Notes: a model not told the origin generated them from the letters alone. A DNA stretch of 25,171 nt from a bacterium (GCA_021799155.1 JAJZBA010000001.1:1-25171); one strand, 5' to 3'; counted from the stretch's first letter, positions 322 to 23,278 are shown. A program made the numbers and translations.

Positions 322-855
322 TCATAATTCAGATTTTTTAATAGCATATACATTCTTGCATTTATCAATAAATAGAATTCCGTTAAGATGGTCTGTTTCG
401 TGCTGAAAAACCCTTGCTAACAATCCTTCGGCTTTAATTTTTATTTTTTCGCCGTTTTTGTTTTGACCGATTAAAGTGATTTTTTCCGGCCGCTCCACCT
501 CGCCGTAAACGCCGGGAACGCTTAAACAACCTTCTTCCATTACCGACGTTTTTTTGGAAAATTTTATGATTTCCGGATTAAAAATGGCGTAGAATTTCTC
601 TTGAGCATTAGTGATAGCGTTAACACTATCGGTGTTAAAAGACGGCGTTTTTGGAATTAAAACTATAAACATTTTAAAATTTAAACCAATTTGATTGGCG
701 GAAAGTCCGATGCCTTTGGCTTTAATCATTGTCTCGCGCATTTTTTTGATTAAATCGTTTATTTCTTTTTTTGTGAATTTTCCAAAATCAAAATCCGCGG
801 TTTTCTGCCGCAAAAATTTTTCCTCAGATTTATTGTTGACGGTAAAGATTTTCAT
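322..855 (-). CDS. def: Peptide deformylase
   Basis: All three PDF motifs: GIGLSANQIG, EGCLS, FQHETDHLNG. Start moved from 891 to ATG at 855 (MKIFTV). Ends in TGA. Confidence 0.96.
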   Translation of the reverse strand: MKIFTVNNKSEEKFLRQKTADFDFGKFTKKEINDLIKKMRETMIKAKGIGLSANQIGLNFKMFIVLIPKTPSFNTDSVNAITNAQEKFYAIFNPEIIKFSKKTSVMEEGCLSVPGVYGEVERPEKITLIGQNKNGEKIKIKAEGLLARVFQHETDHLNGILFIDKCKNVYAIKKSEL

Positions 856-948
856 TAGTATAATTAAATTACAATTCTCTGCAATATGCAAGAATTAATC
901 GAAGATATTGCTCTTTTATAAAATATTTTGAGAGGAAAGGAGGATAAA

Positions 949-1134
949 ATGAAAGAAAAAATCAAATACGGCACCATGGATGAATTATTAAAAAATGAAT
1001 TAGAAAATCCTCAATTTTTCGAGGGAGGAAGAACGACGACGAATATCTCTGCTTTAGCTAAGAAGATGAAAGAATATGATCCTGATGGTAAAAAAGCCGA
1101 CGCAATAGCGGAGAAATACAGAAAAAAATTATAA
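949..1134 (+). CDS. Hypothetical small protein (61 aa), SD-led
   Basis: AAAGGAGG at 936-943, 5 nt before ATG 949; first gene of a two-ORF unit ending in a terminator. Confidence 0.7.
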   Translation: MKEKIKYGTMDELLKNELENPQFFEGGRTTTNISALAKKMKEYDPDGKKADAIAEKYRKKL

Positions 1135-1168
1135 TTGGCTAATAAACAACCAAAAATGGAGGTATTAT

Positions 1169-1357
1169 ATGCGTAATGCAATGACAGCGGCAAAAAGAGA
1201 CAAAAGACTTAGTAGCCCAACAAAATGGGATTCTACAACAATGCGCATAGAACACAATCGCGAGTTTACTCCTCTGGGCAGGCGCATCTACGGCGAAGAA
1301 AGACCGAGCGATATTATAAGAATATGCACAGAAATTAAAAAACACTATAAACCGTAA
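1169..1357 (+). CDS. Hypothetical small basic protein (62 aa), SD-led
   Basis: GGAGGT at 1158-1163, 5 nt before ATG 1169; followed by an intrinsic terminator. Confidence 0.62.
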   Translation: MRNAMTAAKRDKRLSSPTKWDSTTMRIEHNREFTPLGRRIYGEERPSDIIRICTEIKKHYKP

Positions 1358-1367
1358 TGCTTCCAAA

Positions 1368-1398
1368 CGGGGATGTCTAAAAACATCCCCGCTTTTTA
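1368..1398 (+). terminator. Intrinsic terminator
   Basis: Stem CGGGGATGT / ACATCCCCG with loop CTAAAA, then CTTTTTAT. Confidence 0.8.
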
Positions 1399-1460
1399 TA
1401 TGAAATTTTGTTCAAAAATATCTTTTCATTTTTTTATTGAGTTCTTTTGAATTTTTTTGG

Positions 1461-1495
1461 AAAATAAAATCCCCACACGTGAATCCGTATGGGGA
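1461..1495 (-). terminator. Intrinsic terminator of the minus-strand islet operon
   Basis: Minus strand reads TCCCCATACG-GATTCA-CGTGTGGGGA-TTTTATTTT: 10-bp stem with one G-U pair plus a U tract. Confidence 0.8.
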
Positions 1496-1519
1496 GTAAT
1501 AAAAGAACACTGGTAAGAA

Positions 1520-1918
1520 TTATTCGGGCGGGAGGAAGAGGCTGTCAGGCGCTTCAACAATAGTGCATTTTGCTCCACCTCTTCCGGTTGCTGAGCCAGA
1601 ATATTCTCCGACCCACAGTTCGCCTTCGCGCTTAAACTTGTAGTAAATGATGTCGTTGCGGTTGTCGTATTTCTTTGCAAACTGCGCCTCTTTCTGGGTG
1701 ATTTTTACATCGAACAGCTCCGATTCGCCAAAATGATCAAACATTTCACCGATCAACTCTTGTTCGTTGTGAGGGTTAGGGAAAATCACCCCCGAGTACA
1801 TGAATCTGCAAAGCCCTTCATTGATTACAACGCCGACTCCGCCCTCAACTTCTGACCGATGAGCAACACTCAGCCAATTTTGATTTTGAAAGAAAAACCC
1901 CTGAATCAAGTGTGCCAT
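1520..1918 (-). CDS. Hypothetical protein (132 aa), SD-led
   Basis: Start reassigned from 2047 to ATG 1918 (MAHLIQGFFF), preceded by TAAGGAGGTG 4 nt upstream. No family recognised. Confidence 0.75.
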   Translation of the reverse strand: MAHLIQGFFFQNQNWLSVAHRSEVEGGVGVVINEGLCRFMYSGVIFPNPHNEQELIGEMFDHFGESELFDVKITQKEAQFAKKYDNRNDIIYYKFKREGELWVGEYSGSATGRGGAKCTIVEAPDSLFLPPE

Positions 1919-1977
1919 TCTACACCTCCTTATTGTATTGTTTGATTGATATGATTTGTTAATTTGAAATGGACTTA

Positions 1978-2208
1978 TTAACCGTTCAACCCGCCAGAAT
2001 ACGCAGAATGGCATGTCGGATAATCTTCGTTGAAAAACGAATGGCATGACTGACAGTGATTAATAATGAATCTTCCTTCATGACGGTAATAAATCTTAGT
2101 TTCTTTGTTGCATTTTGGGCATATTTCTGTTGTTTCTCCATACCTGATTGTAAGTAGTTTTTTCGCTTCCTTACATTCTTCGCAAATTTGTGCCTGATTC
2201 TTACTCAT
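1978..2208 (-). CDS. Small zinc-ribbon-like protein, SD-led
   Basis: Three CxxC motifs (CEEC, CPKC, CQSC) plus a further Cys in 76 aa; AAAGGAGG 4 nt before ATG. Confidence 0.72.
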   Translation of the reverse strand: MSKNQAQICEECKEAKKLLTIRYGETTEICPKCNKETKIYYRHEGRFIINHCQSCHSFFNEDYPTCHSAYSGGLNG

Positions 2209-2319
2209 ATCGCCTCCTTTTGTCTAAAAAATTTTGTTGAATTTAAGACTTTTAACTTCTCGTTCTCCTTTCATTTTTTATTATTAATGTTCAGAAAATA
2301 AAAAATTTCATTTTCAAAA

Positions 2320-2348
2320 AACATATCAGAAAATCACCACCCTGTCAA
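2320..2348 (-). promoter_or_regulatory. Putative sigma70 promoter for the 2208-1520 operon
   Basis: Minus strand TTGACA (2348-2343), 17-nt spacer, TATGTT (2325-2320). Confidence 0.5.
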
Positions 2349-2446
2349 GCCCATGGCCAAAAAAATTCAAAAGGGCTCTTTAACCCGCCTACCACACCAG
2401 CCGGCGGATTCGGATGGGTAAATAAAGACTATATTTTGAAAAAAAC

Positions 2447-2746
2447 TCATTCTCCACTGCGTCTAATTCTCTTTTTTATTTTTACTGTTTTTAAAAACGA
2501 TTTATTTTGCAATACTTTCATAAAATACGCGCCCTTATTTTTTATGTTTTTCCTTTCCGCCACGTCTTTGGCGATTCTTAATAAATCGTCGCTATTATGC
2601 TTTTTCGCCAGCTTAATGTAAAGCGACTTATGTTTTTCGTCGTTTAATAACTGAGCGATCAAAAGACCTGTTAATTGGTATTTTTTATAGACCCGGCTCT
2701 TTTGGGCGCGTTCTTTAAGAATTTCCAAATAATCTTTTTCTTCCAT
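2447..2746 (-). CDS. Small helical hypothetical protein (99 aa)
   Basis: Start moved to ATG 2746 (MEEKDYLE); the 2893 start would overlap the divergent fur/perR gene and its promoter. C-terminal KNKGAYFMKVL motif. Confidence 0.75.
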   Translation of the reverse strand: MEEKDYLEILKERAQKSRVYKKYQLTGLLIAQLLNDEKHKSLYIKLAKKHNSDDLLRIAKDVAERKNIKNKGAYFMKVLQNKSFLKTVKIKKRIRRSGE

Positions 2747-2774
2747 TTTTATAATTCTATCAAATTTCAGGCTC

Positions 2775-2819
2775 TTGACAAATCTTTTATTAAGAATATT
2801 ATTTAAATAATAATTATTA
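2775..2819 (+). promoter_or_regulatory. Putative sigma70 promoter with an overlapping Per/Fur-like box
   Basis: TTGACA 2775-2780, 16-nt spacer, TATTAT 2797-2802. AAATAATAATTATTA (2805-2819) matches 11 of 14 positions of the 7-1-7 Per box TTATAATnATTATAA. The AT-rich context weakens the call. Confidence 0.45.
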
Positions 2820-2830
2820 CTAATAAGAAA

Positions 2831-3193
2831 ATGGAGAGAAAAACATCCCAAAAAGAAACAATCATTCAATATTTGAAAAGCGTCAAAAGTCATCCGACGG
2901 CCGAAGAAGTTTATTTGGCGGTTAAAAGAAAACTGCCGCGAATCAGCTTAGGAACAGTTTATCGGATTTTAAATAATTTCAAAGAAAAGGGAGAAGTTTT
3001 AGAATTAGAAGGCGAGATTAATCGCTACGACGGCTATGTAAAACCTCATAATCATTTTATTTGCGAAAAATGTCAAAAAATTTACGATATTGAAGAAAAA
3101 ATTGATTTAAAACCGGAGAAAATAAAAATTGGAAAAGTTAATAAATATCAAATTTATTTTTACGGTTTATGTAAAAAATGCAAAGGTCGATAA
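2831..3193 (+). CDS. perR: Fur-family regulator, PerR-like
   Basis: HPTAEEVY, SLGTVYR, RYD, HNHFIC-xx-C, IYD and C-terminal CxxC. Asp (not Glu) after the first CxxC and linkage to ahpC favour PerR over Fur. Confidence 0.82.
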   Translation: MERKTSQKETIIQYLKSVKSHPTAEEVYLAVKRKLPRISLGTVYRILNNFKEKGEVLELEGEINRYDGYVKPHNHFICEKCQKIYDIEEKIDLKPEKIKIGKVNKYQIYFYGLCKKCKGR

Positions 3194-3210
3194 CGTTATA
3201 AATCAAAAAC

Positions 3211-3489
3211 ATGCTTTCACAAATACCAATCAATTTTGAAAAAGTTAAAAAAGAAGATTTGGACAAAGAAATTTTAAGAGTCGGAATGATAGCCGAGCTG
3301 GACGCAGTTAGTCTTTACGAACAGTTGGCGGAAATGACGGAAAACGAAAAAATCAAAAAAGTTCTCTTAGATATCGCCAAAGAAGAAAAAACCCATATCG
3401 GAGAATTTCAGGCACTACTTTTGGAGCGCGACCAGGAGCAGGTAGAGGAATTAAAAAAAGGAAAAGAAGAAGTCGAAGAATTAAAATAG
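3211..3489 (+). CDS. Short ferritin-like protein of the encapsulated-ferritin (EncFtn/Flp) type
   Basis: ILRVGMIAELDAVSLYEQ ... LLDIAKEEKTHIGEF ... DQEQVEEL matches the two-helix EncFtn ferroxidase pattern (E-x6-Y, EExxH). Confidence 0.85.
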   Translation: MLSQIPINFEKVKKEDLDKEILRVGMIAELDAVSLYEQLAEMTENEKIKKVLLDIAKEEKTHIGEFQALLLERDQEQVEELKKGKEEVEELK

Positions 3490-3526
3490 TAAAAAGTCGA
3501 AAATAATCACAAACAAAATAAATATT

Positions 3527-4093
3527 ATGGAAAATTTAATCGGTAAAAAAATTCAGGATTTTGAATTGGAGGCTTATCACGAAAACAAAATCAAAAAAAT
3601 CAAATTTTCCGATTACAAAGGAAAATGGATAGTTTTGATTTTTTATCCGGCTGATTTTACTTTTGTCTGTCCGACCGAACTGGAAGAAGCGGCCGAACTT
3701 TATCCGGAATTTAAAAAATTAGGAGCCGAAGTTTTAAGCGTTTCAACGGACACAGTTTTCGTTCATAAAGCCTGGCACGACGCCTCAAAAGCCATCAAAA
3801 AAATCAAATACCCGATGCTGGCCGACCCAACCGGAAAACTCTGCCGCGCTTTAGGGACTTATATCGAAGAAGAAGGTTTATCGCTGAGAGGAAGCTTTAT
3901 TATTGACCCCAACGGTGTAATTAAAGCTTACGAAATCCACGATAATAGTATCGGCCGAAGCGCCAAAGAACTATTAAGAAAACTTCAGGCCGCCAGGTTT
4001 GTTTCCGAACATAAAGGCCAAGTTTGTCCGGCAAGCTGGACTCCCGGTAAAAAAACCTTAAAACCGGGGCTGGACTTAGTAGGAAAAATATAA
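3527..4093 (+). CDS. ahpC: 2-Cys peroxiredoxin AhpC
   Basis: FYPADFTFVCPTE peroxidatic motif and VCPA resolving motif. Confidence 0.97.
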   Translation: MENLIGKKIQDFELEAYHENKIKKIKFSDYKGKWIVLIFYPADFTFVCPTELEEAAELYPEFKKLGAEVLSVSTDTVFVHKAWHDASKAIKKIKYPMLADPTGKLCRALGTYIEEEGLSLRGSFIIDPNGVIKAYEIHDNSIGRSAKELLRKLQAARFVSEHKGQVCPASWTPGKKTLKPGLDLVGKI

Positions 4094-4111
4094 TCTGATA
4101 TAATTAAATTC

Positions 4112-4149
4112 AAAAATAAAACCAGGGTGAGGCTGGTTTTATTTTTTTT
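4112..4149 (+). terminator. Intrinsic terminator after ahpC
   Basis: AAAAATAAAACCAG / CTGGTTTTATTTTT inverted repeat with a T tract. Confidence 0.75.
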
Positions 4150-4169
4150 ATACGTTAAAATAAATAAGT

Positions 4170-4736
4170 ATGCGTCGTCTTTTTATCGCGATAAATCTGC
4201 CGGAAAATATCAAACGACAAATAGAAAACCTTGTTTCTCAAATAAAAATAGACGCCGATATCCGCTGGATCGCACCGGAGAATTGGCATTTAACTATTAC
4301 TTTTTTAGGCTATCAGCCAGATGAAGCAATTAAACTAATTTTAGAATCTCTTAAAGAAACAGCCGCAAGTTTCAAAACGCCGGAGATTAAATTCGAAAAA
4401 ATTATCTTCGGCCCGCCAAATAAATCTCCGAGAATGATTTGGCTGACAACCGCAAAAGAAACGTCTCAAAAACTTTCCACTATTAAAATTTATCTGGAAA
4501 ATGCTTTAATTAAGAACGGCGTGCGGTTTAAAAAAGAAAATAGAGAATATAACGGCCATCTTACTTTAGCGCGATTTCCTCAAACACAGATAACCCCAAA
4601 AATAAATACTTCGCACCGCTACGAATCAACATTGGCGTTTTACGCCACAAATTTAGATTTAATGGAATCGCGTCTTAAAAAAACCGGTTCGGAATATGAA
4701 GTTTTGGCAAAAGTGGATTTTTTAAAACAAATTTGA
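4170..4736 (+). CDS. thpR: RNA 2',3'-cyclic phosphodiesterase (2H phosphoesterase)
   Basis: N-terminal RLFIAI and two HxT motifs (WHLTITFLG, GHLTLAR). Confidence 0.92.
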   Translation: MRRLFIAINLPENIKRQIENLVSQIKIDADIRWIAPENWHLTITFLGYQPDEAIKLILESLKETAASFKTPEIKFEKIIFGPPNKSPRMIWLTTAKETSQKLSTIKIYLENALIKNGVRFKKENREYNGHLTLARFPQTQITPKINTSHRYESTLAFYATNLDLMESRLKKTGSEYEVLAKVDFLKQI

Positions 4737-4749
4737 TAGAATTAATTCA

Positions 4750-5982
4750 ATGAAAAAAATTCTTAAAAATCGGTATTTTGCAATCGGTATTTTAATTATC
4801 GTCGTTGCCGCCCTGACCGGCGGGGCTTTTTATTTTGGATATAAAAGGGGGACGGAAAAACCGCAGACCGTTATTATTCGCGGAGTGGCAAATCTGGAAG
4901 AGGGGAATGTTGAAGCAGTTGATTTTTCTCTTTTTTGGGACGCTTGGAAAACATTAAAAGACAAATACGTTGGGGCAGATAAAATCAATAACCAAGACTT
5001 GGTTTACGGCGCGGTTTCCGGATTATTCGGAGCGCTGAAAGATCCGAATTCTGTCTTTTTTCCGCCATCGGACGCTAAAAAATTTGAAGAAGACATTGCC
5101 GGAGAGTTTTCCGGCATCGGCGCGGAAATCGGCATCAGAAACGACCAGTTAGTCATTATCGCTCCGCTTAAAAATTCGCCGGCCGAAAAAGCGGGTCTGA
5201 AAGCCGGGGATAAAATCATAAAAATTAACGACGCTTTTACCGTTGGCCTAAATGTTGACGAAGCCGTTAAATTAATCAGAGGTGAAAGAGGAACAAAAGT
5301 GATTTTGACAATTTCAAGAAACGGTTGGGAAAAATCAAAAGAAATTTCCATTATCAGAGATATTATTCAAGTCCCAACAATTGATTGGGAAATTAAAGAC
5401 AACAATATTGCTTATATTCATTTGTATAATTTTTACGAAAAAGCGCCGTTTTTGCTTTATCAAGCGATTTCCGAAATTGTTTTTAAAAATCCGAAAGGCA
5501 TTATTCTTGATTTGAGAGACAATCCGGGCGGATATTTAGAAGGGGCGGTTAATATTGCCGGTTGGTTCTTAGATCCCGGTAAAGTAGTTGTTAGCGAAGA
5601 ATTTCGTTCCGGCAAGAAAGAAGTTTTTAAAACTTACGGCAGCGGCTTATTTGACGGCTTTCCGATGGTTGTTTTAGTCAACGAAGGCTCGGCTTCGGCT
5701 TCGGAAATTTTAGCCGGCGCCCTGCGGGATAACAATAAAATTAAATTAATCGGCAAAAAAACTTTCGGAAAAGGAACTGTTCAGGAATTGGAAACGCTTA
5801 AAGACGGCTCAATGGTTAAAATTACAGTCGCTCACTGGCTGATGCCTAATGGCGGACTAATAGAAAAAAACGGCTTGAATCCGGATTATGAAGTCGACTT
5901 AACCGAAGAAGACGTTAAAGCCGGCAGAGACCCGCAGTTGGAAAAAGCAGTGGAAATTTTGAAATCGGAGATTTTAAAATAA
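4750..5982 (+). CDS. ctpA: S41 family C-terminal processing peptidase with PDZ domain
   Basis: N-terminal TM segment, GIG PDZ loop, ILDLRDNPGG, SASASEI, TFGKGTVQ, DPQLEKA. Confidence 0.93.
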   Translation: MKKILKNRYFAIGILIIVVAALTGGAFYFGYKRGTEKPQTVIIRGVANLEEGNVEAVDFSLFWDAWKTLKDKYVGADKINNQDLVYGAVSGLFGALKDPNSVFFPPSDAKKFEEDIAGEFSGIGAEIGIRNDQLVIIAPLKNSPAEKAGLKAGDKIIKINDAFTVGLNVDEAVKLIRGERGTKVILTISRNGWEKSKEISIIRDIIQVPTIDWEIKDNNIAYIHLYNFYEKAPFLLYQAISEIVFKNPKGIILDLRDNPGGYLEGAVNIAGWFLDPGKVVVSEEFRSGKKEVFKTYGSGLFDGFPMVVLVNEGSASASEILAGALRDNNKIKLIGKKTFGKGTVQELETLKDGSMVKITVAHWLMPNGGLIEKNGLNPDYEVDLTEEDVKAGRDPQLEKAVEILKSEILK

Positions 5983-6093
5983 ATTCCAAATCACAAACAA
6001 ATTTTCTAAATTCTAATTTCCAAATTCAAAACGTGAGTTTAGAATTTTGACATTTGATATTGTTTGTAATTTGGTGCTTGGGATTTGGAATTT
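5981..6093. repeat. 113-bp heptamer-repeat hairpin, copy 1 (inverted partner at 6907-7019)
   Basis: 111/113 identical to the reverse complement of 6907-7019; internally self-complementary (AAATTCCAAATC ... GATTTGGAATTT). Confidence 0.95.
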
Positions 6094-6101
6094 AATATAA
6101 T

Positions 6102-6563
6102 ATGCAAGTAATTCTTCTCCAAGACATAAAATCGCTCGGTAAAAAATTTGACGTGAAAGAAGTCAAAGACGGTTATGCTCGCAATTTTTTAATTCCTAAA
6201 GGACTGGCAAAAATCGCAACCGATGCCGCAGTAAAAGAATTAGAATTAAAAAAAGCGGCTCAAGAAAAAGAAGAAAAAGAAACAAAGGATAAACTGGAAA
6301 CACTGGCCGAAAAATTGACGGATAAAGAATTTCAATTCGCGGTTAAGGTCGGAGAAAAAGATGAGGTCTTCGGTTCTGTTAATAAAAACGACATTAAAGC
6401 GTTGATTTGCGCAGAAATAGACGCCGATTTACGAAAACGCATCGAAGATAAAATAGAAATAAATTTAGAGCGGCCAATAAAAACACTCGGTGAACACCAA
6501 GTAGAAATTGATTTAGGAAAAGGAGTTAAGACGAAAATTAAACTGAAAGTACTTGCCCAGTAG
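6102..6563 (+). CDS. rplI: 50S ribosomal protein L9
   Basis: MQVILLQDIKSLGK, VKDGYARNFLIP, FGSV, PIKTLGEH. Confidence 0.97.
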   Translation: MQVILLQDIKSLGKKFDVKEVKDGYARNFLIPKGLAKIATDAAVKELELKKAAQEKEEKETKDKLETLAEKLTDKEFQFAVKVGEKDEVFGSVNKNDIKALICAEIDADLRKRIEDKIEINLERPIKTLGEHQVEIDLGKGVKTKIKLKVLAQ

Positions 6564-6632
6564 TAAAAATTTGGTTTGCGCCTACGGCGCGCATTTTTTT
6601 ATAAAAAATGCAAACCAAAAATTTCACTACTG
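6558..6632. terminator. Composite inverted repeat between convergent rplI and rpmA (possible bidirectional terminator)
   Basis: CAGTAG..AAATTTGGTTTGC / GCAAACCAAAAATTT..CTACTG outer arms, inner GCATTTTTT / AAAAAATGC and a GCGCC-TAC-GGCGC mini-hairpin. Confidence 0.55.
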
Positions 6633-6899
6633 GACTTGGACAACCTTAACCTTTCGGCTGTTGCCGTCAAAACAAACTTTTTTCTTGGAAACAAATTTAA
6701 CGACGCCTGATTTCAAAGCGTAAAGAGTATCGTCTTTGCCGCGGCCGACGTTTAAACCGGCAAGATATTTGGTGCCGCGCTGTCGAATCAAAATTTCGCC
6801 GGCTTTAACCATTTCTCTGTTTTGTCTTTTTACGCCCAATCTTTTGGAAATCGAATCTCTCCCTAATTTAGTTGAACCGTAGGATTTAGTATGTGCCAT
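6627..6899 (-). CDS. rpmA: 50S ribosomal protein L27
   Basis: [36 protein letters not shown]. Start set to ATG 6899; the upstream extension in the ORF track is repeat sequence. Confidence 0.97.
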
Positions 6900-6906
6900 A
6901 ATAATA

Positions 6907-7019
6907 AAATTCCAAATCCCAAGCACCAAATTACAAACAATATCAAATGTCAAAATTCTAAACTCGTGTTTTGAATTTGGAAATTAGAATTTAGAAAATT
7001 TGTTTGTGATTTGGAATTT
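6907..7019. repeat. 113-bp heptamer-repeat hairpin, copy 2 (inverted relative to 5981-6093)
   Basis: Only two substitutions versus copy 1, both in the hairpin loop (ACGTGAG vs ACACGAG). Confidence 0.95.
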
Positions 7020-7062
7020 GTGATTTGGTATTTCTTTGAATTATATTATATAATTCAAAGGT

Positions 7063-7779
7063 ATGTCAATAACCAGTAAACTTATTTTTGATATTGAAAC
7101 CGTCGGCGTTGATTTTGATTCCCTAGATAAAACTACTCAAGACTCTCTTACGCGCTGGATTAAAAAAGAATCGGTCGGTGAAGAAGAATATCAGGTGGCG
7201 CTGGAAGAACTGAAAAACGGACTCGGTTTTTCACCTTTAACCGGAGAAATAGTAGTTATCGGCGTTTTAGATTATGTAAAAAATCAAGGCGTTGTTTATT
7301 TTCAAGCCCCCAATCAAGAAATAAAAGAATTTTGTGAAGATAATATTACATTTAAACAAGCCACCGAAAAAGAAATGCTGGAGCATTTTTGGAATGGCGC
7401 CAAAATGTACGATGAATTTATCGGATTCAATAGCCGGCAGTTTGACGGCCCGTTTTTAATGATCCGTTCGGCTTACCACGGCATCAAGCCGACTAAAAAT
7501 CTTTCCGAAAGCCGGTATTTATACCAACAAAAAACCTGCGCTCATATTGATTTGGCGGACCAACTCACTTTTCAAGGCAATATGAGAAAAAAGGGGAGCC
7601 TGCATTTGTGGAGCAAACTTTTTGACATAAAAAGCCCCAAAGAAGACGGCGTTACCGGAGACGATATGGGCCGACTATTCAAAGAGAAAAAATTTTTAGA
7701 TATTGCGAGATATAATGCGGGCGATCTCCGGGCAACTAAAAAACTTTACGAAAAGTGGAACCAATATCTTAATATTTAA
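7063..7779 (+). CDS. RNase H-like 3'-5' exonuclease domain protein (PolB-exonuclease-like / YprB-like)
   Basis: LIFDIET (ExoI), FNSRQFDGPF (ExoII), YNAGDL (ExoIII): DEDD-type motif set. Confidence 0.8.
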   Translation: MSITSKLIFDIETVGVDFDSLDKTTQDSLTRWIKKESVGEEEYQVALEELKNGLGFSPLTGEIVVIGVLDYVKNQGVVYFQAPNQEIKEFCEDNITFKQATEKEMLEHFWNGAKMYDEFIGFNSRQFDGPFLMIRSAYHGIKPTKNLSESRYLYQQKTCAHIDLADQLTFQGNMRKKGSLHLWSKLFDIKSPKEDGVTGDDMGRLFKEKKFLDIARYNAGDLRATKKLYEKWNQYLNI

Positions 7780-7830
7780 TTCAAAATTCAAAAATCAAAA
7801 TGCAAAATTACAAATCAAAAATAAAAAATA
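7780..7830 (+). repeat. A-rich heptamer array (TCAAAAT-like)
   Basis: TCAAAAT TCAAAAA TCAAAAT GCAAAAT TACAAAT CAAAAAT; contains the ATG of the next ORF. Confidence 0.8.
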
Positions 7831-7976
7831 CAAGAGAATGGTTAGAAAATAATCTCCGAACAATTATTCTTTTCTTTTTAATATTTCTGGTTAGTTCGAT
7901 TAGTTTTGGTTTGGGTTATTTGGTTAATCGCGAATTCACCCATACACCAATTATTATTGAGAAAACATGCAATTAA
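7800..7976 (+). CDS. Small single-pass membrane protein (58 aa), missed by the ORF track
   Basis: Manual translation: MQNYKSKIKNTREWLENNLRTIILFFLIFLVSSISFGLGYLVNREFTHTPIIIEKTCN*. One clear TM helix; 21 nt after the upstream stop. Confidence 0.72.
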   Translation: MQNYKSKIKNTREWLENNLRTIILFFLIFLVSSISFGLGYLVNREFTHTPIIIEKTCN

Positions 7977-8057
7977 TTCGAAATAAGTTTTCCTAAAAAC
8001 TATAAAACTATAGGTGATTTTTGACTATGAAAAATTGAAAATAGATATCCTATCCTT

Positions 8058-8089
8058 ATAGAGTGTTATGCTATAGCATAACACTCTAT
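8058..8089. promoter_or_regulatory. Perfect 32-bp palindrome with core TGTTATGCTATAGCATAACA (copy 1 of 5)
   Basis: ATAGAGTGTTATGCTATAGCATAACACTCTAT is its own reverse complement. Confidence 0.8.
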
Positions 8090-8201
8090 TTTTTCTATTT
8101 TATATTTATAAATTAATAAATTAATCAAAATATCGCGACCGCGGAAATTTTAATTCAACCGCAACTCGATCGTAATAGAGAAGCATTCTAAGTAAAAATA
8201 A

Positions 8202-8316
8202 TATAGCACTTTGCCCACGATCGTGAGCAAAGTGCTATAAAATATTTTGCGACAGATTAGGGATTGACAAATTAAATCAAATATGCTTATATTTTACTGT
8301 CTCAATTTTTGAGACA
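8202..8316. promoter_or_regulatory. Palindromes and putative promoter upstream of the orphan ORF at 8362
   Basis: 38-bp near-perfect palindrome 8202-8239, TTGACA at 8264-8269 with a weak -10 near 8288, and the 8-3-8 palindrome TGTCTCAA-TTT-TTGAGACA at 8298-8316. Confidence 0.5.
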
Positions 8317-8361
8317 TATTTGTTCTTTAAAAAAATAAAATAAAAAAAGGAGGTAATTGTA

Positions 8362-8823
8362 ATGCAAGAATCAATAAGAAGGTTAACAATTAACGATGAG
8401 GACATTGGCAATATGCTGCTTTACTTAGCTTACTTAGATTCTCCTAGTATTGAATGTCTTGGAGAACCGAGCAGTAAAAAATATTATATTGATCATTCTA
8501 GTCTTCCAGACAGCATAATTGGAGCGTTATTCTTTATCATTGATGAAGATGATGAATATATAAGAATAGAGCTCAGATTTCGAAAAGAACATAAGAAAAT
8601 AGACATTAATGTCTGGATTGCACCCTCTAAGATAGGCAAAGAGACAGTTGCATGGAAAGGAGAAGAGATAAATGGAAAACTTTTTCGTATAAATAAAAAA
8701 GTTGACGAGGATGATTCAATGATTAGATTCCCCTTAGGGAAAAGAATTAAAAAAGCAAATCTGTGGGATTTATTTGATGAAAAAAATACAAAAATAACGG
8801 CGTTAGAACACATTCTTGGGTAA
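8362..8823 (+). CDS. Hypothetical protein (153 aa), SD-led orphan
   Basis: AAGGAGGT 8347-8354, 7 nt before ATG; own terminator; no family recognised. Confidence 0.8.
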   Translation: MQESIRRLTINDEDIGNMLLYLAYLDSPSIECLGEPSSKKYYIDHSSLPDSIIGALFFIIDEDDEYIRIELRFRKEHKKIDINVWIAPSKIGKETVAWKGEEINGKLFRINKKVDEDDSMIRFPLGKRIKKANLWDLFDEKNTKITALEHILG

Positions 8824-19314: not shown

Positions 19315-19715
19315 AAAAACCAAATATCAAATATCAAAAATCAAAACCACAAATTAAAAACTGTTAAATATTTTTTCTTTTTCTCATTGTTAATAAACTT
19401 AAAGCGAGAATATTAGACAATTCTCTAGTTTCATTTATTATTTCTTGAATTTTTGTTTTGTCCACTTTATCTAAATCTTTTAAAAGATGAAGCCAATACT
19501 TTGTTTCGTTAGCGGATTTAAAAGCGATATCGAAGTATCTAGCAAAATCCTTTTTAGAATTAGATGCTTTAGCTTCTATAATATTAATGCTGCCAAGAAA
19601 TTTAAGAGATTTCAGAGTGTACAAATAAACTCTATTTTGAAATTCTGTTTTTGAATTTTGATCTGTGGTTTTGGTATCTGGTTTTTGCATTTTGGTTCTA
19701 TATCTTTAAATTGTG
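19315..19715 (-). mobile_element. Four-helix-bundle gene cassette bounded by inverted heptamer arms
   Basis: Minus-strand 5' arm CCAAAATGCAAAAACCAGATACCAAAACCACAGATCAAAATTC and 3' arm TTTAATTTGTGGTTTTGATTTTTGATATTTGATATTTGG are complementary; the unit interrupts the pilus cluster. Mobility is inferred. Confidence 0.55.
19364..19690 (-). CDS. Four-helix-bundle protein (23S rRNA IVS protein / Avd-like family), apparently internally deleted
   Basis: NIIEAKASNSKKDF, AFKSANETKYWL, ETRELSNIL match the family; the usual LLRSxTSIGA segment before NIIEA is absent. Confidence 0.8.
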   Translation of the reverse strand: MQKPDTKTTDQNSKTEFQNRVYLYTLKSLKFLGSINIIEAKASNSKKDFARYFDIAFKSANETKYWLHLLKDLDKVDKTKIQEIINETRELSNILALSLLTMRKRKNI

Positions 19716-20905: not shown

Positions 20906-21292
20906 TTAACGCGCCTGAATCAAAAACTCTTTGATTTTTCCAACCAATTCGTCTATGGAAGTTTTAGCCTTGATAAAATATTCAATCGCTCCCAATTCCT
21001 GACCGCGATTGACATCTTCCGGCTGGCCTAAATTAGAAACAATAATAATAGGAACCTCTTTTGAAGATATTTGAGGGTCGTTTTTTATTTCTTCCATCAC
21101 CTCAAACCCGGATTTTTTCGGCAGAATAAGATCTAAAAGAATAAGGTTCGGCTGAAGCGATTTTAATAAATTTAAAGCCTCATCGCCGTCTTTGGCAAGA
21201 GACACCCTTAACCCTTCTTTTTCTAATCGGTTTTTCAATAAAGAAGAAAGAAAGACGTCGTCTTCAACGAGAAGTATTTGTGGATTTTCCAT
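20906..21292 (-). CDS. Single-domain response regulator (receiver only)
   Basis: LLVEDD, LLDLILPKKSG (phospho-Asp), IVSN, YFIK. Confidence 0.92.
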   Translation of the reverse strand: MENPQILLVEDDVFLSSLLKNRLEKEGLRVSLAKDGDEALNLLKSLQPNLILLDLILPKKSGFEVMEEIKNDPQISSKEVPIIIVSNLGQPEDVNRGQELGAIEYFIKAKTSIDELVGKIKEFLIQAR

Positions 21293-21362: not shown

Positions 21363-21487
21363 CGTTCGCTCCGCTCGCTACCACCGATACAAAACTACAA
21401 ATAGTTAGTGCGAATCTCCAAATAGTATATTCGTAGATTCGAATGAATTCGTAGTTTCGCATCGCGTAACAGTGAGCGAAACGAACG
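21363..21487 (-). repeat. 125-nt hairpin element, copy in the 16S 3' trailer
   Basis: 122/125 identical to 23082-23206, same orientation. Confidence 0.95.
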
Positions 21488-22103
21488 ATATCGACACTTT
21501 TTTAGTTTAGTTGTTCCACGCACAGCTTCCGCTACGCGTGCCTTGTTACGACTTCTGCCATGTCACCGAACTTACCTTAATCCCGCCTAAGCGAGACTTC
21601 AGGCACTCCCGGCTCCCTTGCAGTGACGGGCGGTGAGTACAGGACTCGAGAACGTATTCACCGCGCCATGGCTGATGCGCGATTACTAGCGATTCCAGCT
21701 TCATGAGGGCGAGTTTCAGCCCTCAATCCGAACTGAGGTCGGCTTTGATGGGATTAGCTCCGCCTTGCGGCTTGGCAAACCCATTGTACCGACCATTGTA
21801 GCATGAGTGTGGCCCAGGGCATCAAAGGGCCATGCGGATTTGACGTCATCCCCGCCTTCCTCCCCCTAATGAGGGCAGTCTTCCGAGACACTTATAACTC
21901 GGAACAGGGGTTGCGCTCGTTACCCCACTTAAGGGAACGCTTCAAAGTACGAGCTGACGACAACCATGCAGCACCTGTCCTGCCGTCCTTGAGAGACGAC
22001 CATCCTTTCGGACGATCTTCGTCAGGATTTCAAGCCCTGGTAAGGTTCCTCGTTTACCGTCGAATTAAACCTCATGCTCCACCGCTTGTGCGAGTCCCCG
22101 TCT

Positions 22104-22135
<32 letters not shown>

Positions 22136-22819
22136 TCCCAGGCGGTCCGCTTAACGCGTTAGCTTCGCCACTCCGAGGGTCGACACTCGAAACAGCTAGC
22201 GGACATCGTTTAGGGCGTGGACTACAAGGGTATCTAATCCTTTTTGCTACCCACGCTTTCGCGGCTCAGAGTCAGGAACGTCCCAGCAGAATGCCTTCGC
22301 CTTTGGTGTTCCGCACGATATCAACGGATTTCACCCCTACACCGTGCGTTCCATCTGCCTCTAACACCCTCTAGTCCAGCCGTATTCATTGCGGTTCCAA
22401 AGTTAAGCTCTGGAATTTAACAATAAACGCGCCAGACCTCCTACCCGCTCTTTACGCCCAATAAATCCGGATAACGCTTGGGGTCTCTGTATTACCGCTG
22501 CTGCTGGCACAGAGTTAGCAACCCCTTATTCAACTGGTACCATCAATCCCACTAAAAGCAGGACTTTTCCCCAGTTAAAAGCGGTTTACAATCCGAAGAC
22601 CTTCTTCCCGCACGCGGCGTCGCTCCATCAGGCTTTCGCCCATTGTGGAATATTCTCGACTGCTGCCACCCGTAGGTGTACGGCCCGTGTCTCAGTGCCG
22701 TCGTTGGAGGACAGCCTCTCAGCCCTCCTACCGGTCATAGCCTTGGTGAGCCATTACCTCACCAACTAGCTGATCGGATCTAGGCCAATCAAGCGCCGAA
22801 TACATTGCTGTATCCTTTA

Positions 22820-22996
22820 CTGCGCACCTCACTAAAGTTCAGTGCTTAAAGTGCTTAACCAAAATTCAAAAACCAAAATTCAAAACCACAAATCAAAAAC
22901 TATAAAATCTATCGTTTGAAAATTTTTACTCTGTGGTTTTGGTCTTTGATATTTAATTTTTGCTTTTTAAACACTTTACCTTAATGAGATGCGCAG
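22820..22996 (-). other. 16S helix 9 insertion (intervening-sequence-like, about 177 nt including closing stem)
   Basis: Stem CTGCGCATCTCATTAAGGT / ACTTTAGTGAGGTGCGCAG (differences all G-U compatible) encloses inverted heptamer arms; sits between AATGGT and TAAAG where helix 9 is normally a short hairpin. Confidence 0.88.
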
Positions 22997-23081
22997 ACCA
23001 TTGGGAATTATCCAATCTTTCGACTGGCTATGCCCAAGCGCTCGGTATGTACCAAGATGTTACTAACTCGTTCGCCGCTAA

Positions 23082-23206
23082 CGCTCGCTCCGCTCGCTAT
23101 CACCGATACAAAACTACAAATAGTTAGTGCGAATCTCCAAATAGTATATTCGTAGATTCGAATGAATTCGTAGTTTCGCATCGCGTAACAGTGAGCGAAG
23201 CGAACG
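23082..23206 (-). repeat. 125-nt hairpin element inserted at the tip of 16S helix 6 (V1)
   Basis: Lies between CAAGTCGAGCGAT and TTAGCGGCGAACG; folds as one long imperfect hairpin. Confidence 0.93.
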
Positions 23207-23278
23207 ATCGCTCGACTTGCATGCCTTATCCACGCCGCCAGCGTTCATCCTGAGCTAGGATCAAACTCTCAAATAAAC

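Follow-up and report, generated by a model that had tools for sequence, protein, structure and literature searches.

Shine-Dalgarno-led accessory genes in a Parcubacteria-type genome whose 16S rRNA gene lacks the anti-Shine-Dalgarno

Introduction

The DNA described here is a stretch of 25,171 nucleotides (nt) (GCA_021799155.1, JAJZBA010000001.1:1-25171), referred to as the window. It is one whole contig (C7) of a genome that we label G000, which comprises 478.7 kb in 67 contigs with 38% GC, is estimated to be 95% complete with 0.08% contamination, and belongs to a tiny uncultured bacterium of the Parcubacteria type. Pairing between the Shine-Dalgarno (SD) sequence and the anti-SD at the end of 16S rRNA is the textbook way of placing a ribosome on a bacterial mRNA. 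An original prediction, made from the window alone, held that five genes of unrecognized family carry strong SD motifs that the 16S rRNA encoded in the same window cannot read. Here, we describe these genes, the genome-wide class that includes them, and the explanations that might account for them.

The locus and its SD-led genes

The five SD sites lie where they had been predicted, with GGAGG 4-8 nt before an ATG (Table 1). They head small open reading frames (ORFs) that form three units, called plus, minus, and third, and no Pfam or PHROG family was found for four of the five. The accompanying claim about housekeeping starts also held, as there is no GGAGG at any other start in the window and the leaders there are A/T-rich. 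GGAGG is not enriched in the window overall (17 observed vs 21.6 expected); its placement, however, is far from random.

Table 1. Positions of the SD-led units, their signals, and the 16S rRNA gene in the window (aa, amino acids).
Position	Strand	Feature	Remarks
836..864	plus	Promoter-like TTGACG-17-TATAAT, plus unit	11/12 consensus
939..943	plus	SD core (AAAGGAGG)	GGAGG 5 nt before ATG 949
949..1134	plus	61-aa ORF, first gene of plus unit	No family match
1158..1162	plus	SD core (TGGAGGT)	GGAGG 6 nt before ATG 1169
1169..1357	plus	62-aa ORF, second gene of plus unit	No family match
1368..1398	plus	Intrinsic-terminator hairpin and T run	End of plus unit
1439..1457	minus	Inverted repeat, right arm (AAAAAATTCAAAAGAACTC)	Minus-unit boundary
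1470..1495	minus	Terminator hairpin, minus unit	Kept in homologous cassettes
1520..1918	minus	132-aa ORF, minus unit	GC 0.47; horizontally mobile cassette gene
1925..1929	minus	SD core (TAAGGAGGTG)	6 nt before ATG 1918; GGAGG in 8/9 homologous cassettes
1978..2208	minus	76-aa ORF, minus unit	Zinc-ribbon-like CxxC pattern
2213..2217	minus	SD core (AAAGGAGG)	4 nt before ATG 2208
2320..2348	minus	Promoter-like TTGACA-17-TATGTT, minus unit	With TG
2360..2378	plus	Inverted repeat, left arm	Minus-unit boundary
8264..8293	plus	Promoter-like TTGACA-18-TATATT, third unit	11/12 consensus
8349..8353	plus	SD core (AAAGGAGGT)	8 nt before ATG 8362
8362..8823	plus	153-aa ORF, third unit
21504..23276	minus	16S rRNA gene	Rfam RF00177, 1399 bits, full length; sole copy

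The 61- and 62-aa ORFs were compared with Pfam and PHROGs only. Zinc-ribbon families in Pfam matched the 76-aa ORF weakly, below the cut-off. The inverted repeat that bounds the minus unit occurs in the genome in these two copies only. No terminator was detected after the third unit (ORF 8362-8823), and a hairpin, TGTCTCAATTTTTGAGACA (window 8298-8316), sits at the predicted transcription start of this unit. The predicted structure of the 153-aa protein is poor, with a predicted local distance difference test (pLDDT) score of 0.34.

Pfam matches elsewhere in the window include def, a Fur/PerR regulator, a rubrerythrin-like protein, AhpC, LigT/ThpR, CtpA, ribosomal protein L9, an exonuclease, MurC, an M23 peptidase, GltX, pilins, PilC, and PilB; by this gene content, the backbone is ordinary chromosome. 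A gene for a four-helix bundle of the 23S-rRNA-intervening-sequence type (PF05635, GC 0.26) is found between the pilus genes and the 16S region (window 19364-19690). A chimeric assembly of the islet, which had been raised as a possible flaw, is unlikely, since sampled 31-mers of positions 900-2400 were all present in five runs from four studies.

The 16S rRNA gene and its tail

The 16S rRNA gene contains two large insertions, which are common in bacteria of the candidate phyla radiation (CPR). As had been predicted, it has no CCUCC: the gene ends in GGAACAACUAAACUAAA, and the tail that follows helix 45 (approximately 21504-21524) is GGAACAACUAAACUAAAAAAG, where the canonical tail has GGAUCACCUCCUUA. 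No CCUCC lies between the tail and the next gene (start 21292), and no second 16S was found in the 95%-complete assembly.

Relatives of G000 were examined for the same trait (those named below are labeled G024, G032, G033, G035, G050, and G139). Tails of the type GGA-(A/U)(C/U)-AAUUAAA were present in all 30 relatives read, some of them in the family of G000 and others in different families of its order; G139, G050, and G033 have tails of this type too. Five relatives that are assembled in one to three contigs each have exactly one 16S, without anti-SD. The second, CCUCC-bearing copy that had been suggested as a check was thus absent even in a one-contig relative, and the 16S trailers of the relatives contain no conserved CCUCC. 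From these comparisons, the missing anti-SD is a trait of the lineage rather than an assembly error, and its loss is old and spans the whole order. The loss itself is already published for Parcubacteria, of which only 48% have the CCTCCT motif (Tsurumaki et al. 2022, RNA 28:1041, PMC9297842).

Two other observations concern 16S genes. A hairpin of about 125 nt lies inside 16S helix 6 (window 23082-23208) and is repeated with 97.6% identity just past the 16S 3' end (21363-21489); more diverged copies occur in G000 at C21:12593-12716, C21:14518-14641, and on C22, C54, and C51, the 23S region among these sites. The behavior of this hairpin is that of a small palindromic element, either mobile or gene-converted. 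In G139, which belongs to the same order and has an anti-SD-less 16S, a second 16S-like 3' fragment (C2:1950-1991; L050) ends in GGAACAUCUCCUUUU; it could be contamination or a second rRNA gene.

SD-led genes across the genome

GGAGG motifs were counted throughout G000 without recourse to gene calls. An ATG at 4-10 nt, opening an ORF of at least 50 aa, followed 44 of the 436 motifs (10%), compared with 1.6-4% in permuted or reverse-complement controls; for AAGGAGG, the figure was 27 of 82 (33%). The genome-wide histogram of GGAGG-to-ATG distances has a single peak at 4-10 nt, with its mode at 6, above a flat background, and the consensus at this spacing is AAAAGGAGGTGA. In 50% of the SD-positioned sites, GGAGG has a T immediately after it (21% elsewhere), and in 19% a TGA; the motif thus runs on along the canonical tail UCACCUCCUUU.

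We also calculated duplex energies between the canonical anti-SD and the 18 nt before each of 519 starts, using internal windows as controls. Energies of -10 kcal/mol or below were obtained for 45 of the 519 starts (7 in controls), and the remaining 474 or so were weaker. Leaders between -10 and -7 kcal/mol are depleted (12 vs 43 in the internal control windows), with the rest near -2. The distribution of SD strength, proposed as a check of the original prediction, is therefore bimodal. The gene list favored SD-led starts in start choice, so the motif-first counts are the safer figure; the two approaches agree on about 40 SD-led genes. The five ORFs of the window belong to this class of about 40 among about 550 ORFs.

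Against the organism's own 16S tail, leaders paired no better than shuffled leaders, and the motif of the SD-led genes lacks the complementarity to this tail that SD:anti-SD pairing requires. We also looked for a compensatory SD that matches the new tail and found no enrichment. The bulk of the starts are A/T-rich, with a G frequency of 0.10-0.15 at positions -12 to -1, and over the whole genome a -10-like (TATAAT-like) hexamer peaks 6-9 nt before the ATG (for example, at window 20906-21292, 6102-6563, and 7063-7779). The position of this box suggests that many core transcripts are leaderless. Start composition and duplex energies agree that the SD is uncommon among core genes.

An SD-led unit consists of a near-consensus sigma-70 promoter, a leader of about 30-105 nt, the SD, and a small ORF, with a terminator in two of the three units of the window. 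Most SD-led genes in the genome have a TTGACA-17-TAtAAT promoter 30-60 nt upstream. They are shorter than the other genes (median 132 aa vs 188 aa), and most have no Pfam or PHROG family, with exceptions that include a 3D-domain protein, a response-regulator receiver, and a dCMP-deaminase-like protein. The neighbors of the units are core genes without an SD, which often appear to be leaderless. No integrase or transposase gene was found beside the units in the window. A phage origin was considered and rejected: the only PHROG hit was weak (E=0.009), and C41, a contig rich in SD-led genes, carries groES and groEL as part of ordinary chromosome.

Some further features of the class and of the genome deserve mention. 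Two SD-led units for unrelated proteins (L087 and L084) have a common promoter-leader module of about 90 nt, located at C38:6943-7037 and C39:7600-7694, in which an operator-like palindrome, CCGACAATTTTTGTCGG, directly follows the -10 box; given this palindrome, a single regulator may control both. Copies of a short hairpin, CCCTCC-TTCGCTAAAGCTAC-GGCGGG, recur inside a genome and from one genome to another with up to 96% identity (G000 C64:2-29 and C64:2661-2688; G032 C3:36226-36253 and C1). An initiator-like tRNA-Met at G000 C21:795-867, parsed by eye, has the C1/A72 mismatch and an anticodon stem with GGAGG/UCUCC instead of the usual three G:C pairs.

Turnover and transfer of SD-led genes

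The whole of G000 was compared gene by gene with G032, a 99% complete genome from its own family in which Def is 73% identical. Only 6 clean GGAGG-led ORFs out of 42 (14%) gave a tblastn match of any kind in G032, and 6 of 43 did so in the reverse comparison. In contrast, 329 of the 503 other ORFs (65%) have reciprocal best hits. Three homologous pairs are GGAGG-led in both genomes. The SD-led genes are thus the flexible, fast-turnover part of the genome.

The 132-aa ORF is the most informative case. It has 17 homologs of 130-136 aa with 52-94% identity, and this uniform length places its start at the SD-led ATG 1918 rather than at the upstream ATG 2047. Its model is a lipocalin-like beta barrel without an informative structural match. 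The ORF is present in 3 of 150 genomes of the order, and the nine loci at which the cassette was found have nine different neighborhoods. The closest copies are 94%, 87%, and 86% identical. In the host of the 94% copy, RNase Y, HU, a sigma factor, and the CCA-adding enzyme are 67-83% identical to those of G000. The gap between the sigma-factor and CCA-enzyme genes is about 3.5 kb in that genome vs about 750 bp in G000 (contig C48), so the four extra genes cannot be at this site in G000. The genes that flank the 86% and 87% copies have no detectable homolog in G000. These comparisons indicate horizontal movement of the 132-aa family among distantly related members of one class.

Every copy of the cassette comes with a promoter of its own, a leader of about 45 nt, and a terminator, and is flanked by similar inverted-repeat words. 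Although the leader otherwise diverges, eight of the nine copies retain GGAGG, at protein identities as low as 52%; the core genes that flank the cassettes are SD-less everywhere. The decay of the SD in homologs that had been named as a check is not seen in most copies, either here or in the deaminase-like genes described below (about 9 of 14). In the assembly with the 86% copy (GCA_028688515.1, with a 971-kb chromosome), the only 16S hit ends in GGATCACCTCCTTTCT, a canonical anti-SD tail. If this 16S is correctly binned, hosts with and without an anti-SD share the same cassette.

The words CCTTTTGAAATTTTT and AAAAATTTCAAAAGG form the inverted repeat that flanks the cassette in several unrelated genomes (L037-L042), and they may mark a site of insertion or recombination. 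One copy in another genome has a gene for a XerC-type recombinase 1.8 kb away.

The 153-aa ORF was found in none of the 150 genomes of the order and has one homolog, with 44% identity, among 1.84 billion representatives. This homolog is SD-led and lies amid other SD-led small ORFs and a Lon_C/NACHT gene. The latter, of 843 aa (L157:3438-5969), is directly downstream of the homolog with a 19-nt overlap, and such a neighbor hints at a defense-island context for the 153-aa family. A search for homologs of the 76-aa ORF among 5.8 billion proteins returned only the ORF itself, which on this basis is a true orphan. The label of orphan genes in the original prediction is only partly true, since the 132-aa and 153-aa ORFs have homologs.

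The SD-led class in other genomes

A class-wide comparison of this kind is new. The anti-SD GGATCACCTCC is kept after helix 45 in 34 of 201 sampled genomes of the class. A positive pattern for anti-SD-less tails proved both too loose and too narrow to classify these genomes; the comparison is therefore between the 34 positively anti-SD-bearing genomes and the family of G000, whose tails were read. AAGGAGG-N4-9-ATG is a minority signal in all 201 genomes, with tens of sites per genome and never hundreds. An SD-less core together with an SD-led minority thus predates the loss of the anti-SD, and this loss has not thinned the SD-led class.

Search for a reader of the SD

We searched G000 for an RNA other than the 16S tail that could pair with the SD. 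No stand-alone CCUCC RNA was found; with few exceptions, occurrences of CACCTCC and ACCTCCT are antisense to an SD site or part of a tRNA stem. A blastn comparison of G000 with G032 for conserved noncoding RNAs with exposed CCUCC returned only tRNAs, rRNA, and a short repeated hairpin. The sole candidate for an adaptor RNA acting in trans, combining the complement of the new tail with CCUCC, was a 13-nt hit on C30 that is a low-complexity repeat beside a terminator. Within the 16S rRNA, the sole internal CCUCC is paired in the apparent helix 12, and helix 26 has CCUCGG in a stem, so neither was retained as a partner. Overall, no reader was found among a second 16S, free CCUCC RNA, adaptor-like RNA, and 16S-internal CCUCC.

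Discussion

The sequence and geometry of the SD sites are what selection by ribosomes with CCUCC would give, and such ribosomes exist in at least one sixth of the sampled genomes of the class. These two facts point to an explanation in which the SD is part of a portable expression module that belongs to a shared, rapidly exchanged gene pool. Canonical CCUCC ribosomes somewhere in this pool would keep the SD intact by selection, and the short residence time of each unit would contribute to the same end. In G000 the SD would be inert, as it does not pair with the 16S tail, and the units would probably be translated without SD:anti-SD pairing, by way of A-rich, unstructured leaders. Where selection acts, and how SD-led mRNAs are translated in G000, we infer from the genomic pattern. 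We favor this explanation because the genes are part of the flexible genome, because one family is transferred, and because the motif extends along the canonical tail; taken as a whole, we consider it the leading account while rating its chances at a little short of even. The earlier suggestion that the SD marks acquisition from an SD-using donor survives in part: the SD-led genes are flexible and exchanged, and one holder of the 132-aa cassette apparently has a canonical 16S. Its simple form, a recent and decaying import or a phage, does not agree with native GC and GC at third codon positions (GC3), an SD-led density that is not lower, a vertically kept SD, and the lack of a phage signature.

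Several observations weigh against a portable module of this kind. Measured against the reversed-pattern control, SD-led starts are in excess by a median of 20 per Mb in the 34 anti-SD-bearing genomes vs 35 per Mb in the 41 genomes of the anti-SD-less family, a difference whose p-value is only indicative because relatives are not independent; this is not what a simple flow from source to sink predicts. Composition does not mark the SD-led genes as foreign either (GC 0.384 vs 0.386 and GC3 0.375 vs 0.379 for SD-led and other genes, respectively), and the 132-aa gene alone is richer in GC, at 0.47. The canonical 16S of GCA_028688515.1 is on a short contig and may be mis-binned. Finally, the dCMP-deaminase-like gene (C41:5679-6275) is directly downstream of groEL in G000 and at least six other genomes of the family. 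Its protein identity within the subclade of G000 (68-72%) is the same as that of Def. In this subclade, the region between the two genes has diverged, with the groEL terminator, the promoter boxes (-35 and -10), and TAAGGAGG as the exceptions. G000, G033, and G035 have an intact SD before the deaminase-like gene, and G024 has a degenerate one; the 16S tails of G000, G033, and G024 are anti-SD-less, and G035 has no assembled 16S. Over the whole family, about 9 of 14 deaminase-like copies are SD-led, and five have starts of the leaderless type. The locus looks like a case of selection on the SD inside anti-SD-less lineages.

Such selection would be expected if the SD is read inside the cell, by an RNA or protein other than the 16S tail at the mRNA exit side of the 30S subunit, which would give leadered accessory mRNAs a separate route of initiation. 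We regard this as the principal competitor, a possibility to be taken seriously, if less likely than not, and the two explanations remain close. The retention of the SD at the syntenic deaminase locus across anti-SD-less genera, amid diverged noncoding bases, argues for it. So do the GGAGG of the 132-aa cassettes down to the most distant copies, the SD of the sole 153-aa homolog, and the three GGAGG-led pairs in G000 and G032. The denser SD-led starts in anti-SD-less genomes, the native composition of the genes, and the age and order-wide extent of the anti-SD loss point in the same direction. However, the search described above, which covered a second 16S, free CCUCC RNA, and the paired internal CCUCC of 16S, yielded no candidate. 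The motif moreover still tracks the canonical tail exactly (GGAGGTGA), which a new reader would not be expected to preserve for so long, and the SD has been lost in 5 of 14 deaminase-like copies and in one of the nine cassettes. The fuller version, in which GGAGG has been read and selected without an anti-SD since before the order diversified, by a second reader on or near the 30S that provides a separate channel for accessory genes, strikes us as rather unlikely.

The other explanations are far weaker. The 16S gene could have been misread, through wrong assembly of the tail, a mature rRNA that differs from its gene, or an unassembled second rRNA gene; rRNA genes are hard to assemble and bin, the 125-nt repeat lies just past the 16S 3' end, and one assembly with a cassette homolog has a canonical-tail 16S on a short contig. 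Since the same type of tail recurs in 30 genomes of the family and order as well as in G139, G050, and G033, relatives in one to three contigs have a single, anti-SD-less 16S, core genes are SD-less, and the loss is published (PMC9297842), we consider this very improbable. The original prediction also proposed that the units are tuned for the canonical ribosomes of another organism, such as the host of an epibiont, which they would reach after transfer of DNA or mRNA. The units are indeed complete generic bacterial modules, with a sigma-70 promoter, an SD, and, in two of three units in the window, a terminator, and the window contains Type IV pilus genes. However, the units showed no signal for secretion or transfer, relatives with an anti-SD of their own have the same SD-led class, ordinary cytoplasmic functions occur among the SD-led genes (dCMP-deaminase-like, response-regulator receiver), and the locus was present in no RNA run. 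Nothing that could be tested here supports the proposal, and we give it hardly any credence, a shade less than a misread 16S. Least probable of all, to the point of being negligible, is that the motifs are due to chance or to start choice. GGAGG is not over-represented in the window, SD-led starts were favored in the gene list, and several of the starts flagged as having an SD are in fact codons within conserved genes or the end of a tRNA; yet the motif-first counts exceed permuted controls 3- to 6-fold with a sharp peak at 4-10 nt, and the 41 family genomes have a median of 25 SD-led starts vs 5 in the reversed-pattern control.

The loss of the anti-SD in part of the Parcubacteria has so far been assumed to make SDs irrelevant there. 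G000 and its relatives, however, each keep about 40 perfect, correctly spaced SDs, and they do so exactly on fast-turnover accessory genes. If the SD is maintained in a shared mobile pool that is re-selected in anti-SD-bearing cells, it would be a gauge of DNA exchange among bacteria with reduced genomes; if instead an unknown component reads GGAGG, this would be a new mechanism of initiation. In practical terms, an SD offers an inexpensive way to flag the flexible genome in these lineages, and starts will be misplaced by gene callers that train a single ribosome-binding-site model for each genome. With SD-led and SD-less genes side by side in one cell, the question lends itself to a direct test. 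Our literature search found no paper on an SD-led gene class in anti-SD-less Parcubacteria.

Comparison with known systems

The anti-SD-less Parcubacteria already described (PMC9297842) resemble G000 in the lineage-wide 16S end without CCUCCU, in their small CPR genomes, and in SD helices that are presumed not to form. That description, however, concerns the rRNA trait only and includes no residual class of genes with canonical SDs, no cassette architecture, and no turnover. G000 also fits the category of anti-SD-less, SD-scarce lineages (category iv of PMC10783764): its CCUCC-less 16S is typical of its lineage, and most of its genes have no SD. These lineages likewise lack the CCUCC core and have an SD-like leader on a few per cent of their mRNAs. 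The examples given are Flavobacteriia, Nanoarchaeota, and others, with no CPR among them, and the few per cent are treated as a residue rather than as a distinct, bimodal accessory class.

The Bacteroidota (partly summarized in PMC10783764) have a similar SD-less core with A-rich leaders and a small minority of strong SDs. Their anti-SD is present but sequestered, and can be exposed, and the few genes with an SD, such as rpsU, are autoregulatory. In G000, deletion has removed the anti-SD from the gene, and those genes that have an SD are accessory units rather than regulators of ribosomal proteins. In leaderless-dominated genomes (a GeneMarkS-2 group; Genome Res 2018, PMC6028130), the -10 box is 6-8 nt before the start, much like the -10-like hexamer found 6-9 nt before the ATG in the bulk of G000 genes. 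Such genomes, however, normally keep the anti-SD and use the SD for internal genes of operons, whereas the SD-led units of G000 have their own promoters.

Genomic islets and mobile cassettes, such as integron cassettes and genes carried by miniature inverted-repeat transposable elements, are the remaining parallel. The units of G000 differ from these in carrying their own promoter and terminator, and neither an integron integrase or attC nor a transposase was seen in the window. An integron gene cassette in the strict sense was rejected, as the promoters are near-consensus and no integrase gene is nearby. Atypical composition and an adjacent mobility gene, two usual marks of horizontal cassettes, are absent; two others are present, namely a patchy distribution at different loci and a similarity between cassettes that exceeds that of housekeeping genes. 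Like the known cassettes, the units of G000 are small, patchy, horizontally moving single-gene units with short inverted repeats, inserted between core genes.

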